Shown here piece by piece: positions 17,288 to 22,394 of a stretch of 64,000 nt of DNA (positions are counted from its first letter, which is position 1; every line of letters starts with the position of its first letter). The notes beneath the pieces were generated by a model that saw nothing but the letters and a program-made list of their open reading frames with translations, searched no databases and was not told where the DNA came from. The stretch lies in assembly GCA_048940925.1 (NCBI GenBank), contig JBHLOC010000025.1, positions 6,016 through 70,015 of the forward strand, in the 5' to 3' direction. Made by a program: the position numbers and the translations under genes. The stretch is from Promethearchaeota archaeon. GTDB taxonomy: Archaea > Asgardarchaeota > Lokiarchaeia > Sigyniarchaeales > SOKP01.

Positions 17288-18139
17288 TTAAATTAGTTGA
17301 CTACAGTAATTCATAGCAAAAGGTCTTTTAGAAATTGGTTTAATAGCTTTAAAAGGTTTTTTTCTAATAATTTCGAGGGAAATATTGAATGTTTTACAGA
17401 AATCTTTTATATAAAAGTCGATTTCTTTCTGTTCTTCTTCTAAAAGTTCAGAAACTTGTGCCCCAACACCTAACCAACCTTCGACATTTTTATCCGTTCT
17501 AAGATAAATAACGCCTCTATGAATCCCTGTTCCTAATTCTGTTCCACAAATAGGCTGTTGATTCTCAATAATTGTGCCATTTGGTAAGAATTTTAGACCA
17601 AGCACAATAATTTTACCACCTGCCATATACTCGCCCAAGAAATCTTTAGCTGTGCCACCGATTATTAAAATAGGAAATTGATTTTTATATTCTTTCATAT
17701 GGATACCAACTCTATAACCCACGTCTCCCTTGACATAGATTTTTCCACCTCTTGAAGATAATCCGATAACATCCCCTCCATCTCCATAAATTATTAATGT
17801 TCCTTCATTCATTGTATTTCCTGTTTGATCCTCACAATTCCCAATAACACTAATTTTAGGACCATCCATAAAAATTCCTAAATCATTACCTGGAACTCCA
17901 TTAATAATTATTTCTACATTTCCTTGTAAAGCTGCACCTATAAATCTCTGCCCACAAACATTGTTTAATACAATATTTTTACAATTATTTTTAACGGCAT
18001 CATTGATCATAGAATTTAATTCTCTATAGTCAATTGGTTCTCCATTTGGGGCAGCATTTATCTCTAGAGGTTCTATTCTATCCATTTCAAAATTTTTAAC
18101 TTCAATATCATTCATTATCATAGTTTTATTCACCAGCAT
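17288..18139 (-). CDS. Glutamate synthase, GXGXG (alpha-subunit C-terminal) domain protein
   Basis: 283 aa of repeated beta-helix G-x-G-x-G turns (GNDLGIFMDG, GDGGDVIG, GDVGYRVG, GGTAKDFLGEYMAGG). Overlaps the upstream gene by 14 nt. Confidence 0.85.
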   Translation of the reverse strand: MLVNKTMIMNDIEVKNFEMDRIEPLEINAAPNGEPIDYRELNSMINDAVKNNCKNIVLNNVCGQRFIGAALQGNVEIIINGVPGNDLGIFMDGPKISVIGNCEDQTGNTMNEGTLIIYGDGGDVIGLSSRGGKIYVKGDVGYRVGIHMKEYKNQFPILIIGGTAKDFLGEYMAGGKIIVLGLKFLPNGTIIENQQPICGTELGTGIHRGVIYLRTDKNVEGWLGVGAQVSELLEEEQKEIDFYIKDFCKTFNISLEIIRKKPFKAIKPISKRPFAMNYCSQLI

Positions 18140-19646
18140 GTTTTACTCCTAAAATATCCGCAATATGCGGATTTGGACCAATATACCTTAATCGGTCTCT
18201 ATTTGAGCGAAGAGATTCCACAGAATCTATTCCCATCGCTCCTAAAACTTCCTTTAATTCTTCATTCCAAGAATGAAATAAATTTATGATTCTTTTTTTT
18301 GAAACATCAATATCTAATCTCTTCACTAAAATTTCTTGCTGTGTTGCGATACCCCATGAACAAAGACCTCTAAAGCATTGCTGGCAGACTCGACATCCCA
18401 TTGCTATTAATACCGGTGTACAACACATAGCTATATCTGCCCCTAATGCAATAGCTTTGATCAAATCGGCAGAATATCTAATAGAGCCCCCAGCAATTAA
18501 TGTTATCTCTTCTCTCAATCCTTCTTGCCTTAACTTTTCATCAACAACTGCAATGGCTATCTCAATAGGGATCCCTGCATGATCTCTAATAATTCTTGGC
18601 GCAGCACCAGTACCCCCTCTAAAACCATCAATTGTTAGGAAATCGGCACCACCTTTAACTATTCCTATCGCAATTGGGGCTGAATTATGTACTGCCGCAA
18701 TCTTTACTCCCACAGGAACCTTATATCTTGTTGCTTCTTTTAATGCTGCTATTAATTGAGCTAAATCCTCTATTGAATAAATATCATGATGAGGATATGG
18801 AGATAATGCATCACTTCCCTGTGGAATCATACGCGTTTGCGAAATTAAATTGCTTACTTTTTCACCTGGGAGATGGCCACCGTGCCCAGGTTTTGCTCCT
18901 TGCCCTATTTTGATTTCTAGACCTGCTGCATTATGTAAATAATTAATATCCACACCAAATCTTCCTGATGCGACTTCAGTAATAATATTTGGAGCATATT
19001 CATAAAAATCTGGATGTAGACCCCCTTCTCCTGAACCTGCTACAATATTTAATTCTTTTACTGCTTGATATATTGCTTGACATGCATTGTAGCTAATTGA
19101 CCCTAAAGACATATGACCAACCATAATTGGCATATCTATTTCAAAATTAGGAAAGAGATTTGTCTTTAATGAAATATCGTTAATATCATCATAATCACCT
19201 GAAAAATTAAGCTGCTTTAACTTTCGTCCAAATATTATTTTAGTTTCTATTGTCTCTCTCAATGGATCAATACTAGGATTTGTGACTTGGCAAGCGTCAA
19301 GAAGTAGGTCATCAAAGATGGATCTAATCGGTCTATCATTGCCCGTTGCTGAAAGTAAAACGCCTCCATTTCCTGATTGAGCCCAAATTATATTTCTAAT
19401 TTTTCTAGTATAGTTACCATGTTGGGGTAAATAAGCATCATTTTGAACAATGCGTATCGCCTTTCCTGGGCACATAACTACACATCTTTGGCACGCTACG
19501 CATTTATTGTCATCAGCAATTATTCGTTCTCCATTGAAATATAGTACTCCAAATGAACAATTATTTACACATCTTTTACATTTCTTACAATTCTCTTGAT
19601 TAATATTTACTCTATAATAAGGGAGAATCTCATGTACTATAGCCAA
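18126..19646 (-). CDS. Glutamate synthase FMN-binding (central) domain protein with N-terminal 2x[4Fe-4S] ferredoxin
   Basis: CKKCKRCVNNC and CVACQRCVVMCP motifs. KIGQGAKPGHGGHLPGEKV, DGFRGGTGAAP, GGSIRYSADLIKAIALGAD. TTG start 6 nt after a GGAGGT. Confidence 0.9.
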   Translation of the reverse strand: MAIVHEILPYYRVNINQENCKKCKRCVNNCSFGVLYFNGERIIADDNKCVACQRCVVMCPGKAIRIVQNDAYLPQHGNYTRKIRNIIWAQSGNGGVLLSATGNDRPIRSIFDDLLLDACQVTNPSIDPLRETIETKIIFGRKLKQLNFSGDYDDINDISLKTNLFPNFEIDMPIMVGHMSLGSISYNACQAIYQAVKELNIVAGSGEGGLHPDFYEYAPNIITEVASGRFGVDINYLHNAAGLEIKIGQGAKPGHGGHLPGEKVSNLISQTRMIPQGSDALSPYPHHDIYSIEDLAQLIAALKEATRYKVPVGVKIAAVHNSAPIAIGIVKGGADFLTIDGFRGGTGAAPRIIRDHAGIPIEIAIAVVDEKLRQEGLREEITLIAGGSIRYSADLIKAIALGADIAMCCTPVLIAMGCRVCQQCFRGLCSWGIATQQEILVKRLDIDVSKKRIINLFHSWNEELKEVLGAMGIDSVESLRSNRDRLRYIGPNPHIADILGVKHAGE

Positions 19647-19648
19647 TT

Positions 19649-20839: not shown

Positions 20840-20845
20840 CACTTT

Positions 20846-22194
20846 TCACTCTCTCATGTTTGAAGAATCCGGTTTTATGTTTTCATTCTCTATAATATTA
20901 AATAGTTTTTTCAAATCTCCAACTTTAGGTTTATTAGTTTCTAACCCTACTCTATTACGGGCTGATTTTGATAATAAACCAATAATTCCTTTCTGATAAA
21001 AGGAATAGAATTCACGTGCATATCCTTTTGTAGCATATCCTCGCTCTGTCGCGAGATTACGTAAAATTGAAAAAATTTCAATCATACCAACTCTCATAGG
21101 ACAAAGCTCATAACATAAATAACAATCAAGACACAGCCAAATTGACTGATCAGATATGACCTCTTCAACTCTTCCTTCAAGGAGCTTATAGACAATTTCG
21201 CTTGGTCTGAATTCGGTCAATTTTGATATGATACAGTCATCGTCACATGCTCTACATGAATAACATTTGAATAAGAAATTAGGATCGAAATATTTTCTTA
21301 TTTCCCTATTTTTTGCTTTAATATCTTCAATTTTTTTAAAAAGTGATTTGACTTGCGTTCTGTGGTACTTTTTCATCAATTCTCGAATATTAATCTCTAG
21401 GGCAATACATAATAATTCTGAATAATATAACACGGGAATATCGTAATTACGATCTTCTTTTTTTAAATCTTGTTGCAAATGATCAAATTGAATAAAACAC
21501 TGAGGACAACACACAACAATACAATCAATCTTATTCTCCTTCATACTTAATAATTTCGCATTAATTATTTCTAATGATAAATTTGGACTCCCAGCTCTCC
21601 CAAGACTTCCTCCACAACATTCCATTTTAAATTCATAATCAATACTTTGAGCACCTAAATCTCTAATCAAATCATCAAATAAAGTTGGCTCAAGTGGATC
21701 ATCAGTCTGTACTTTATTGCTTGGTCTAAGGAAGTGACAACCATAAAAAACCGCAATCCTTAACCCCGTTAATGGAAACTTTAAATTATCTTTTATCGTC
21801 TCCCTTCTGAATTTGAAAACGAATTCGACCAAATGATAAATGTTACAATCTCCACGGACTTTAAGATCAATTTTATCCAAATATTCATTGATCTTCTCTT
21901 TTAAATGATGATCTTCTTCAATTTCACCTTTCACTTTTTTGAAGGTTGTAAAACACCCATTACAAGGAGTTAAAATAGCTTTATTCTCCATCTCAGCAAG
22001 ACTAAGATTTCGAGCTGCCGTTAAATAGAACAACAATTTATTAGAATTTTTAATCCCATTCGGCTCAGGACAACAAGAAAACTTTGAATTTTCAGTAAAA
22101 GCAATCCCTAAATAATCTAATACATTTCTTATTGAAACTTCTATAAAAGGAAGCCGATATGTTATAGTGCATCCTGGGAATAAGACTATCTCAT
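20846..22194 (-). CDS. HdrB-HdrC fusion (heterodisulfide-reductase-like, two CCG domains + 2x[4Fe-4S]); start region defective or non-canonical
   Basis: Aligns with methanogen HdrB from its first residues: EIVLFPGC..SCCPEP..TPCNGC, then YGCHFLRP..MECCGGS..VCCPQC. HdrC-like CYSCRACDDDC and CLDCYLCYELCP follow. The ORF track starts at TTG 22036, but the conserved HdrB N-terminus continues in frame up to 22213 with no ATG/GTG/TTG. The only ATG (22194-22192) is one nt out of frame. Confidence 0.75.
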
Positions 22195-22394
22195 GATTAA
22201 TTATTTTAAACCTCTTTAATTATATTAAGTTATTTTAAAAGATTTTGAAAGATTTATGTAAATAGGCTAAATAAATAACATAATTTTACTTAGCTAAATG
22301 ATCTACCTTATTTACTCCTATTCTAGTTATATTTATTTGAGTCTTTATCATAATTTTTTTCACTTTTTTTCTTAACTTCAAATAAAAACTAAAC

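Follow-up and report, generated by a model that had tools for sequence, protein, structure and literature searches.

A fused HdrBC-like protein linked to a predicted split archaeal-type glutamate synthase in uncultured archaea and bacteria

The window analysed here is a 64-kb stretch of DNA in which the reading of open reading frames revealed four tightly packed, co-directional genes on the minus strand between positions 17288 and 22201. The first gene (20846..22201, with its stop codon at 20848-20846) encodes a 451-aa fusion of an HdrB-like part followed by an HdrC-like part, and was delimited with Pfam, NCBIfam and aligned loci. It is followed on the same strand by genes for a 397-aa class-II (Ntn) glutamine amidotransferase subunit (19649..20842; Pfam GATase_2, 1.4e-12), a 506-aa synthase subunit with Fer4 and FMN-binding Glu_synthase domains (18126..19646; Pfam Glu_synthase, 1.2e-126, 423 bits, plus Fer4 families) and a 283-aa GXGXG beta-helix subunit (17288..18139; Pfam GXGXG, 8.3e-31). 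Open reading frames and Pfam domains agree in full with the gene order given in a preliminary description of this DNA. The same description reported 3-nt gaps and 14-nt overlaps; the 3-nt gap between the fusion and amidotransferase genes and the 14-nt overlap between the FMN and GXGXG genes are right, but the gap between the amidotransferase and FMN genes is 2 nt. HdrA and GltD had also been described as missing from the operon, and indeed no HdrA was found among the window's 43 open reading frames of at least 150 aa and no GltD in the operon. About 15 nt past the last stop codon, the minus strand carries an oligo-T run (17266..17273), read from the sequence, which is likely an archaeal terminator.

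The start of the fusion gene had been placed at 22213, but the conserved N-terminus begins instead at an ATT codon (22201-22199), as deduced from the alignment of 29 loci. No ATG, GTG or TTG codon occurs in this gene upstream of the TTG at 22036. A Shine-Dalgarno-like AAGAGG (22211..22216, minus strand), again read from the sequence, lies 9 nt upstream of the ATT, and related loci carry GAGG or GGAGG at the equivalent position. Because the conserved start codon is non-canonical, gene callers truncate the gene.

The three genes from 17288 to 20842 are predicted to encode a split archaeal-type glutamate synthase (GOGAT), judging from their domains and from a context of glutamine synthetase (GS), Amt and Lrp genes. 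They display the features of that type, namely an Ntn amidotransferase with a nucleophile cysteine, an FMN/Fe-S subunit, a separate GXGXG protein and the order GATase-FMN-GXGXG. The nucleophile of the amidotransferase is Cys23 in the motif DGCGISG, which follows a 22-aa N-terminal extension; homologues conserve the motif CG[IL] behind a variable extension of 11-35 aa. In the FMN subunit, an N-terminal 2x[4Fe-4S] ferredoxin domain is combined with an FMN TIM barrel and with a further cluster motif, CxxCxxCxxxxC; the paired alignment shows no variation in the cluster cysteines of this subunit.

Pfam recognises two CCG domains (8.8e-27) and Fer4_8 (6.4e-08) in the fusion protein. The HdrB-like part (approximately residues 1-295; 21317..22201, minus strand) contains two CCG motifs, formed by C11, C43, C44, C80 and C83 and by C155, C195, C196, C232 and C235, both of which fit the HdrB pattern CX31-39CCX35-36CXXC. 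The HdrC-like part (approximately residues 305-440; 20882..21289, minus strand) contains two CxxCxxCxxxC motifs (C313/316/319/323 and C357/360/363/367) and a C-terminal tail. Both parts were identified by phmmer, by Foldseek and by their invariant cysteines, ten in the former and eight in the latter, and none of these 18 cluster ligands varies in the alignment of the fused-HdrBC family. This invariance and the correct spacing sustain the earlier claim that both CCG motifs and both HdrC motifs are intact. The CCG motifs are predicted to ligate two noncubane [4Fe-4S] clusters.

By phmmer, the HdrB-like part matches HdrB (8rvu_b) with an E-value of 2.2e-57 over residues 4-294, and the HdrC-like part matches HdrC (5odc_C) with an E-value of 1e-15. 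An AF2 model of the fusion protein reached a pLDDT of 90.5 and a pTM of 0.85. In Foldseek comparisons, the HdrB part of the model gave target TM-scores of 0.92-0.93 and rmsd values of 1.8-1.9 Å against 7bkb_B, 8rwn_B and 5odc_B, and the HdrC part gave a target TM-score of 0.61 against 5odc_C. The modelled fold agrees with that of HdrB plus HdrC. The fusion scores 241.8 bits with the NCBIfam HdrB model TIGR03288 (equivalog cut-off 345.15) and 69.3 bits with the HdrC model TIGR03290 (cut-off 160); since both scores fall below the cut-offs, its chemistry may differ from heterodisulfide reduction. An exhaustive search placed fused HdrBC proteins in a group of their own, with about 25 clusters at 50% identity that mostly score above canonical HdrB.

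To determine what accompanies the fusion elsewhere, loci were retrieved by similarity to the HdrBC fusion alone, without reference to the GOGAT genes. An amidotransferase gene is present in all fused-HdrBC loci with at least 1300 nt of downstream sequence (83/83), and GATase, FMN and GXGXG genes directly follow the fusion in this order in 55 of the 57 loci with at least 4200 nt. Where the same scan picked up canonical hdrC and hdrB as a pair of separate genes, GOGAT genes were absent. The linkage between fusion and GOGAT is far beyond chance and near-obligate, which supports the earlier proposal that this GOGAT has the HdrBC-like protein as its dedicated partner. The four-gene unit occurs in about 100 uncultured archaea and bacteria, including Halobacteriota, Zixibacteria, Schekmanbacteria and Bacillota, and all carriers found are MAGs. 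Confinement of the synteny to one genome, named beforehand as a ground for refutation, is decisively contradicted, as the unit is kept from 82% down to about 30% identity in both domains; at 30-39% identity it persists although the flanks are unrelated. In one Bacillota MAG the order is rearranged, with the fusion gene last instead of first. The HdrBC-like protein and the FMN subunit diverge in parallel, with a correlation of r = 0.89 between their pairwise distances; none of 999 permutations reached this value. Literature searches found no paper describing an HdrBC-like protein linked to GOGAT, in line with the preliminary view that the association has not been described biochemically.

The operon stands in a context of nitrogen assimilation. 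Pfam searches of the window identified an Lrp/AsnC regulator (26142..26645, minus strand) and two glutamine synthetases on the plus strand (27427..28929 and 32128..33480), and Amt and GDH are also encoded. An ortholog of the first glutamine synthetase adjoins the operon in two other loci and an ortholog of the second (77-87% identity) in eight. Among 101 loci altogether, 30 have GS as an immediate neighbour of the operon and 16 have Lrp within its flanks. When all flanking ORFs were clustered, the genes that recurred were GS, Lrp, GuaA and similar genes. No fifth redox gene recurred in this clustering, which supports a self-contained unit, nor did any gene for a thiol carrier, thioredoxin, GcvH, DsrC-like protein or the like. 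The window and the flanks of about 100 loci turned up neither hdrA nor mvhD. Outside the operon, the window has two genes for GltD-like proteins (7765-10524 and 60862-62868); their domains are unlinked to the operon and are syntenic with it in only one other locus. An FrhB-GltD fusion about 7 kb from the operon lies outside the conserved unit. Several Asgard loci carry a second, divergent Glu_synthase-family paralog near the operon.

The fusion protein shares its fold with the HdrB and HdrC subunits of known complexes (5ODC, 7BKB, 8RVU), and its HdrB part aligns end-to-end at 31-36% identity with both noncubane patterns and both [4Fe-4S] motifs present. It differs in being one B-to-C polypeptide, whereas canonical hdrC and hdrB are separate and their products act with HdrA. 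The fusion is never found beside hdrA and is almost always beside split GOGAT genes. The preliminary description had framed the operon in terms of methanogen-type archaea, but the host is an Asgard (Loki-type) archaeon, in which CoM-S-S-CoB is not an expected substrate. We know of no carrier of the fusion that makes CoM or CoB. Assignment as a CoB-CoM heterodisulfide reductase was rejected on the sub-threshold scores, the single B-to-C polypeptide, the absence of HdrA from window and flanks, and the Asgard host. HdrD, GlcF, GlpC and LutA/LutB types likewise combine a CCG pair with a 2x[4Fe-4S] domain, but in the order Fer4 then CCG, and their partners are a membrane cytochrome, FAD dehydrogenases or LUD-domain proteins. 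NCBIfam profiles of GlcF, GlpC, TfrB and LdhH place the CCG pair in the C-terminal part, so the reversed domain order noted earlier is confirmed.

Other systems resemble the unit in its proposed logic. In the thiol:fumarate reductase TfrAB of Methanothermobacter, oxidation of thiols by a CCG/Fe-S protein is wired to organic-acid reduction at a flavin site, and a similar arrangement may be envisaged here by analogy. TfrB, however, has its Fe-S part first and its CCG pair last, and its partner is a fumarate-reductase flavoprotein rather than GOGAT. TfrAB itself was rejected, as the fusion scores 56.7 bits with TfrB against a cut-off of 385 and the operon has no fumarate-reductase flavoprotein gene. 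Putative F420-dependent GOGATs of methanogens and ANME (FGltS I, FGltS II and the FrhB10 type) offer a precedent, as they combine a split GOGAT with one extra redox-module gene that is predicted to set the donor (PMC3448663, PMC3087415, PMC9012536), although F420 dependence 'remains to be proven' (PMC3087415). In those clusters the module is FrhB-like (F420H2/FAD), whereas here it is HdrBC-like; the fourth gene encodes CCG and Fer4 domains and not FrhB, and an F420-dependent GOGAT was rejected. GltBD and ferredoxin-GOGAT have the same catalytic domains (amidotransferase, FMN/Fe-S synthase and GXGXG), and in GltBD electrons reach FMN via [4Fe-4S] clusters of the partner subunit (PMC8097209). 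Here, by contrast, each domain forms a protein of its own and a central domain is missing. The synthase carries a 2x[4Fe-4S] domain at its N-terminus together with a cluster motif of four cysteines. NADPH-GOGAT was rejected because the operon has no GltD and the GltD-like domains of the window are unlinked to it.

The fusion protein is probably a dedicated subunit or redox partner of the GOGAT. Our tentative interpretation is that the four genes encode one four-subunit GOGAT, in which HdrBC is the dedicated electron-input subunit and probably oxidises a thiol-type donor; we infer that the subunits associate physically, which way the electrons run and what donates them. As read from the cofactor motifs, electrons would pass from the two noncubane [4Fe-4S] clusters of the HdrB part to the two [4Fe-4S] clusters of the HdrC part, and from there to the synthase subunit, whose N-terminal ferredoxin domain would bind two further [4Fe-4S] clusters. 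They would then reach the cluster bound by CxxCxxCxxxxC, the FMN and finally 2-iminoglutarate, giving glutamate. The HdrB site would oxidise a two-electron thiol-type donor to the disulfide, and the electrons would enter the chain singly. Thiol oxidation is proposed for this site because a catalytic site would stand at each end of the chain, as in TfrAB. Such an enzyme would be a thiol-dependent GOGAT, and candidates for its donor are a low-molecular-weight thiol, a protein dithiol, a lipoyl arm and sulfane or sulfide species. Energetically, a thiol/disulfide couple with a potential of about -140 to -270 mV is sufficient for the glutamine-dependent reductive amination of 2-oxoglutarate. Against a thiol donor, which we regard as possible but still doubtful, no thiol-carrier gene recurs near the operon, and to our knowledge the carrier taxa share no common low-molecular-weight thiol and HdrB-like modules occur in complexes without a known disulfide substrate. 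Methanomassiliicoccus has a three-gene GOGAT without any fourth gene, which indicates that the HdrBC module is an add-on.

The HdrBC-like protein might instead be an Fe-S adaptor that turns over neither thiol nor disulfide but connects the GOGAT with a hydrogenase or a flavin-based bifurcating module of the HdrA/MvhD type, specified by genes outside the operon. In that case the heterodisulfide would give way, as high-potential acceptor, to the strongly exergonic GOGAT reaction, and ferredoxin could be reduced on the other branch. HdrC does bridge HdrA to HdrB in the solved HdrABC complexes, and Asgard archaea and many anaerobic bacteria are generally known to have HdrA/Mvh homologues without a known disulfide. 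The 'unknown disulfide' problem is common to non-methanogen archaea (PMC9723716). Even in methanogens, hdrA is usually unlinked to hdrBC (PMC3087415), so nothing can be read into the lack of hdrA in this operon. For such a relay, however, the HdrC part would suffice, yet the family keeps the two noncubane-cluster motifs of the HdrB part without exception, and the flanks and window yielded neither hdrA nor mvhD; we consider the relay rather unlikely. It is improbable that electrons enter a ferredoxin-dependent GOGAT at the ferredoxin domain of the synthase while the HdrBC-like protein, in a regulatory or protective role, senses or buffers the thiol/disulfide state and gates activity. A 451-aa protein with four Fe-S clusters would be a costly sensor, and near-obligate linkage in two domains and co-variation with the FMN subunit better fit a stoichiometric catalytic subunit. 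Such a role would nevertheless accommodate the three-gene version, whose core may suffice with ferredoxin, the known thiol regulation of plant Fd-GOGAT and the conserved weak ATT start, which could fit a sub-stoichiometric regulator.

Less probable still is a reversed flow, with glutamate oxidised at the FMN site during amino-acid fermentation and the electrons passed to a disulfide or other acceptor at the HdrB site. Asgard archaea are amino-acid fermenters and HdrB is normally a reductase, but the glutaminase with its conserved nucleophile cysteine and the adjacency of GS, Amt and Lrp point to assimilation, a separate GDH for glutamate oxidation is encoded nearby, and glutamate oxidation by a disulfide would be uphill by the potentials known to us. 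We give as little credence to the suggestion that the three genes specify a relative of GOGAT with another activity, for example an amidotransferase-coupled oxidoreductase resembling N-methylglutamate synthase or one of another kind, and that the Hdr-like protein works with this enzyme. Split GltB-like triplets are known to make N-methylglutamate synthase as well, and the divergent paralog near several Asgard operons could be read in this sense. However, the 423-bit match to Glu_synthase and the three Fe-S motifs retained in the FMN subunit indicate a redox enzyme, the gene order is that of archaeal GOGAT, and GS is a direct neighbour in nearly a third of the loci.

The electron donor of the split archaeal-type GOGAT has never been established biochemically, and a 2021 expert review notes only the existence of such reading frames in Archaea (PMC8097209). 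The role of HdrB-like proteins in organisms without CoM and CoB is a separate question (e.g. PMC9723716). The operon joins both questions in a compact unit of four genes that could be expressed and assayed, and its recurrence suggests that nitrogen assimilation has an electron-input subunit not described before. The fusion genes are currently labelled 'heterodisulfide reductase subunit B', a name from which MAG surveys might mistakenly deduce a methane-related metabolism. More speculatively, and rather unlikely on present evidence, a thiol- or sulfane-driven GOGAT would make a disulfide at the HdrB site that is re-reduced by otherwise orphan Hdr/Mvh-type bifurcating complexes. If so, Asgard archaea and many anaerobic bacteria would have a physiological disulfide cycle for their 'heterodisulfide reductases', and this cycle would tie glutamate synthesis to energy conservation. 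If the HdrBC module sets the donor, central nitrogen assimilation in many energy-limited anaerobes would run on a redox couple overlooked by current metabolic reconstructions.

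The four co-directional open reading frames of the preliminary description were recovered on the minus strand, from 17288 to approximately 22200. Pfam assigns two CCG domains and a 4Fe-4S dicluster domain to the first gene, GATase_2 to the second, Fer4 and Glu_synthase (423 bits) to the third, and GXGXG to the fourth. A 3-nt gap and a 14-nt overlap between the genes stand as described earlier, whereas the remaining gap measures 2 nt. An oligo-T run lies 3' of the last stop codon. The nucleophile cysteine of the amidotransferase, in a CG[IL] motif, is kept in all homologues after an N-terminal extension of 11–35 residues, which we take to be arranged like the known propeptides of GltB and PurF. 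The FMN subunit carries a pair of ferredoxin-type motifs in its N-terminal region, and close to the C-terminus lies a CxxCxxCxxxxC motif that is invariant. By all sequence criteria tested, the four-gene unit is a split glutamate synthase (GOGAT) of the archaeal type; that its three 'GOGAT' genes encode something other than a GOGAT is less likely.

The first gene product is a fusion of an HdrB part followed by an HdrC part. The HdrB part can be aligned over its whole length to HdrB chains of known structure (E 2e-57), and the HdrC part matches HdrC chains of known structure (E 1e-15). In a confident AF2 model (pLDDT 90.5, pTM 0.85), residues 1–290 superpose on HdrB with a target TM-score of 0.92–0.93 and an rmsd of 1.8–1.9 Å, and the C-terminal 140–157 residues superpose on HdrC. 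Cysteine is invariant throughout the fusion family, bacterial members included, at all ten positions in the pair of noncubane-cluster motifs and at all eight in the pair of [4Fe-4S] motifs. Together, the fusion and the synthase subunit are predicted to hold seven Fe-S clusters plus FMN. An exhaustive HMMER search identified about 25 clusters (50% identity) of fused proteins of 420–470 aa, which score 230–703 bits and mostly rank above canonical HdrB (about 290 aa, at most 243 bits). The same search showed that C-to-B fusions exist too. The B-to-C order, noted earlier as the reverse of that in HdrD/GlcF-type proteins, is indeed unusual, as the CCG pair is C-terminal in GlcF, GlpC, TfrB and LdhH.

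The start of the fusion gene was examined by aligning 29 related loci. Its frame is open from 22219 and contains no ATG, GTG or TTG upstream of the TTG at 22036, and the first CCG motif is encoded upstream of that TTG. The codon aligned with 22201-22199 is ATT in about 20 of the 29 loci, an in-frame stop directly precedes the aligned ATT in several of them, and a GAGG-type ribosome-binding site lies 6–9 nt upstream of the aligned start codon in related loci. For these reasons the most likely start is the ATT at 22201, giving a product of 451 aa (20846-22201). The aligned codon is ATA in one locus (L022), and ATG or TTG is found in a minority of lineages. A database entry 100% identical to the fusion is only 381 aa long, automatic callers having cut the gene short; such truncation is systematic and stems from the non-canonical ATT start. 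A weak start of this kind may serve to adjust subunit stoichiometry or regulation.

Linkage of the fusion to the split GOGAT was assessed in loci retrieved solely by similarity to the fusion protein. Species-representative genomes supplied 30 of these loci, and metagenomes, scanned with a diverse alignment, supplied 80. Of the fused-type loci, 83 extend at least 1300 nt downstream, and every one of these has an amidotransferase gene. Where at least 4200 nt are available downstream, the amidotransferase, FMN and GXGXG genes follow directly and in order in 55 of 57 loci, the exceptions being L022, a disrupted locus, and L047, which has no detectable GXGXG match. In L022 (2700-5764), unrelated genes (LRR-like and others) occupy the place of the FMN gene, and of GXGXG no more than a fragment is left. 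No GOGAT genes occur at the canonical separate hdrC-hdrB pairs (L111–L117) returned by the same scan. Loss of synteny beyond this genome had been named earlier as grounds for abandoning the proposed coupling; synteny is kept down to 30–39% fusion identity, with completely different flanks. Pairwise distances of the fusion and the FMN subunit are correlated (r = 0.89, reached by 0 of 999 permutations), as is to be expected if inheritance and transfer act on the unit as a whole.

The closest fusion homologues almost all come from metagenome-assembled genomes (MAGs) of Promethearchaeota, Lokiarchaeota and Thor-, Hod- and Hermodarchaeota. A Ras/Arf-family small GTPase, a eukaryotic signature protein that fits an Asgard origin, is encoded at 5598-6125 (minus strand), and the G+C content of the window is about 30%. 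The frame of methanogen-type archaea adopted in the preliminary description has to be dropped on account of the nearly all-Asgard homologues and the GTPase; judged from these sequences, the host is an Asgard archaeon and not a methanogen. Outside Asgard, the synteny was found in a Halobacteriota MAG, an unassigned archaeon, Zixibacteria and Schekmanbacteria. The fusion gene follows GXGXG instead of preceding the amidotransferase gene in a Bacillota MAG (L118, 2613-7347), and it is likewise downstream of the GOGAT genes in L097. Other family members are named Nitrospirota, Coriobacteriia and Bacillota, MAG taxon names being as deposited. A search for a cultured carrier returned none; every named carrier is a MAG.

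Genes of nitrogen metabolism are unusually dense between 6273 and 51710. They include glutamate dehydrogenase (6273-7544), an Lrp/AsnC regulator (26142-26645), two glutamine synthetases of different types (27427-28929 and 32128-33480) and the ammonium transporter Amt (30536-31735). GMP synthase (GuaA), an RHH regulator, a glutamine-dependent NAD synthase and carbamoyl-phosphate synthase (CarAB) are also encoded in the window. Glutamine synthetase lies within the fetched flanks of 30 of 101 loci and Lrp within those of 16 of 101; in more distant non-Asgard metagenome loci, the former is often directly adjacent and on the same strand. When all flanking open reading frames of about 110 loci were clustered, the only recurrent neighbours were glutamine synthetase, Lrp, GuaA, an ABC transporter family, a response regulator and lineage-specific small proteins; thioredoxin, GcvH, ferredoxin, HdrA and MvhD were not recurrent. 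The four genes seem to form a unit of their own.

Directly upstream of the operon (22395-23191, minus strand) are genes for an 88-aa protein and a 169-aa double-zinc-ribbon protein. Both keep this position in the loci most closely related to this one (L002, L003, L005, L006, L023 and L026) and may be lineage-specific regulators. Directly downstream (16318-16965, minus strand) is a Glu_synthase-family remnant, decayed by stops and frameshifts, with 45% identity over 259 aa to a paralog that is about 550 aa long and Cys-rich at its N-terminus; intact copies of this paralog lie near the operon in L006, L009, L013, L016 and L024. At 7765-11401 (minus strand), a 919-aa fusion of Fer4, FrhB_FdhB_N/C and a GltD-like part (Fer4_20 and Pyr_redox_2) is followed by a PyrK/NfnA-like Fe-S protein, and the glutamate dehydrogenase gene adjoins the pair. 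Together the two resemble an Nfn/Sud-like enzyme that carries an F420-type module. The pair was considered as the 'missing' GOGAT small subunit and rejected, being syntenic with the operon only in L009. A second GltD-like protein (Fer4_11, Fer4_20 and Pyr_redox_2, 668 aa) stands beside a molybdopterin oxidoreductase whose gene is cut by the window end (60862-63992, minus strand), a pair that resembles NAD(P)-linked formate dehydrogenases. Unrelated to the GOGAT finding is a cluster at 53177-60664 encoding a 3-hydroxyacyl-CoA dehydrogenase, two NMO-family FMN proteins, a ketopantoate-reductase-like protein, an ADP-ribosylglycohydrolase and a thiolase.

Methanogens have an FrhB-like gene in place of the fourth gene, and its product has been read as the subunit that oxidises F420H2 in a putative F420-dependent GOGAT (PMC3087415, PMC3448663, PMC9012536). 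By analogy with this subunit, the HdrBC-like protein would be a donor-specific input module of GOGAT. The three GOGAT genes occur on their own, with no fourth gene beside them, in Methanomassiliicoccus luminyensis; by gene content, at least one lineage can do without the fourth gene. A chain of Fe-S clusters would run from the HdrB active site at one end to FMN at the other, provided that the HdrC part docks on the synthase at its ferredoxin domain. This proposed layout is that of thiol:fumarate reductase, and for that reason a thiol-type donor, oxidised at the noncubane clusters, is favoured. Thiol/disulfide couples lie at -140 to -270 mV and 2-oxoglutarate plus ammonia/glutamate at about -120 mV, and glutamine hydrolysis adds roughly -14 kJ/mol. 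On these values, a thiol-driven reaction would be feasible and would waste far less energy than one driven by ferredoxin.

To our knowledge, CoM-SH/CoB-SH cannot be the donor in the carrier taxa, and this, together with the lack of a linked carrier gene, is the main weakness of the thiol-donor model. The chief rival explanation is that the fusion serves only as a relay to an unlinked HdrA/Mvh-type module, with GOGAT as the high-potential arm of electron bifurcation; the ligands of the HdrB clusters are, however, strictly conserved, which argues against a pure relay. Less likely are a regulatory role of the fusion and electron flow in the reverse direction.

In fold and cofactor ligands the fourth subunit resembles HdrBC, but it departs from HdrB and HdrC in curated thresholds (its NCBIfam scores fall below both equivalog cut-offs), gene organisation and genomic partnership, and it is therefore not filed as a heterodisulfide reductase. 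The full-text literature searched, which leaves out most subscription journals, yielded no account of a link between an Hdr-like gene and GOGAT. From its sequence, the four-gene unit is rated as a GOGAT with a putative new class of electron-input subunit.
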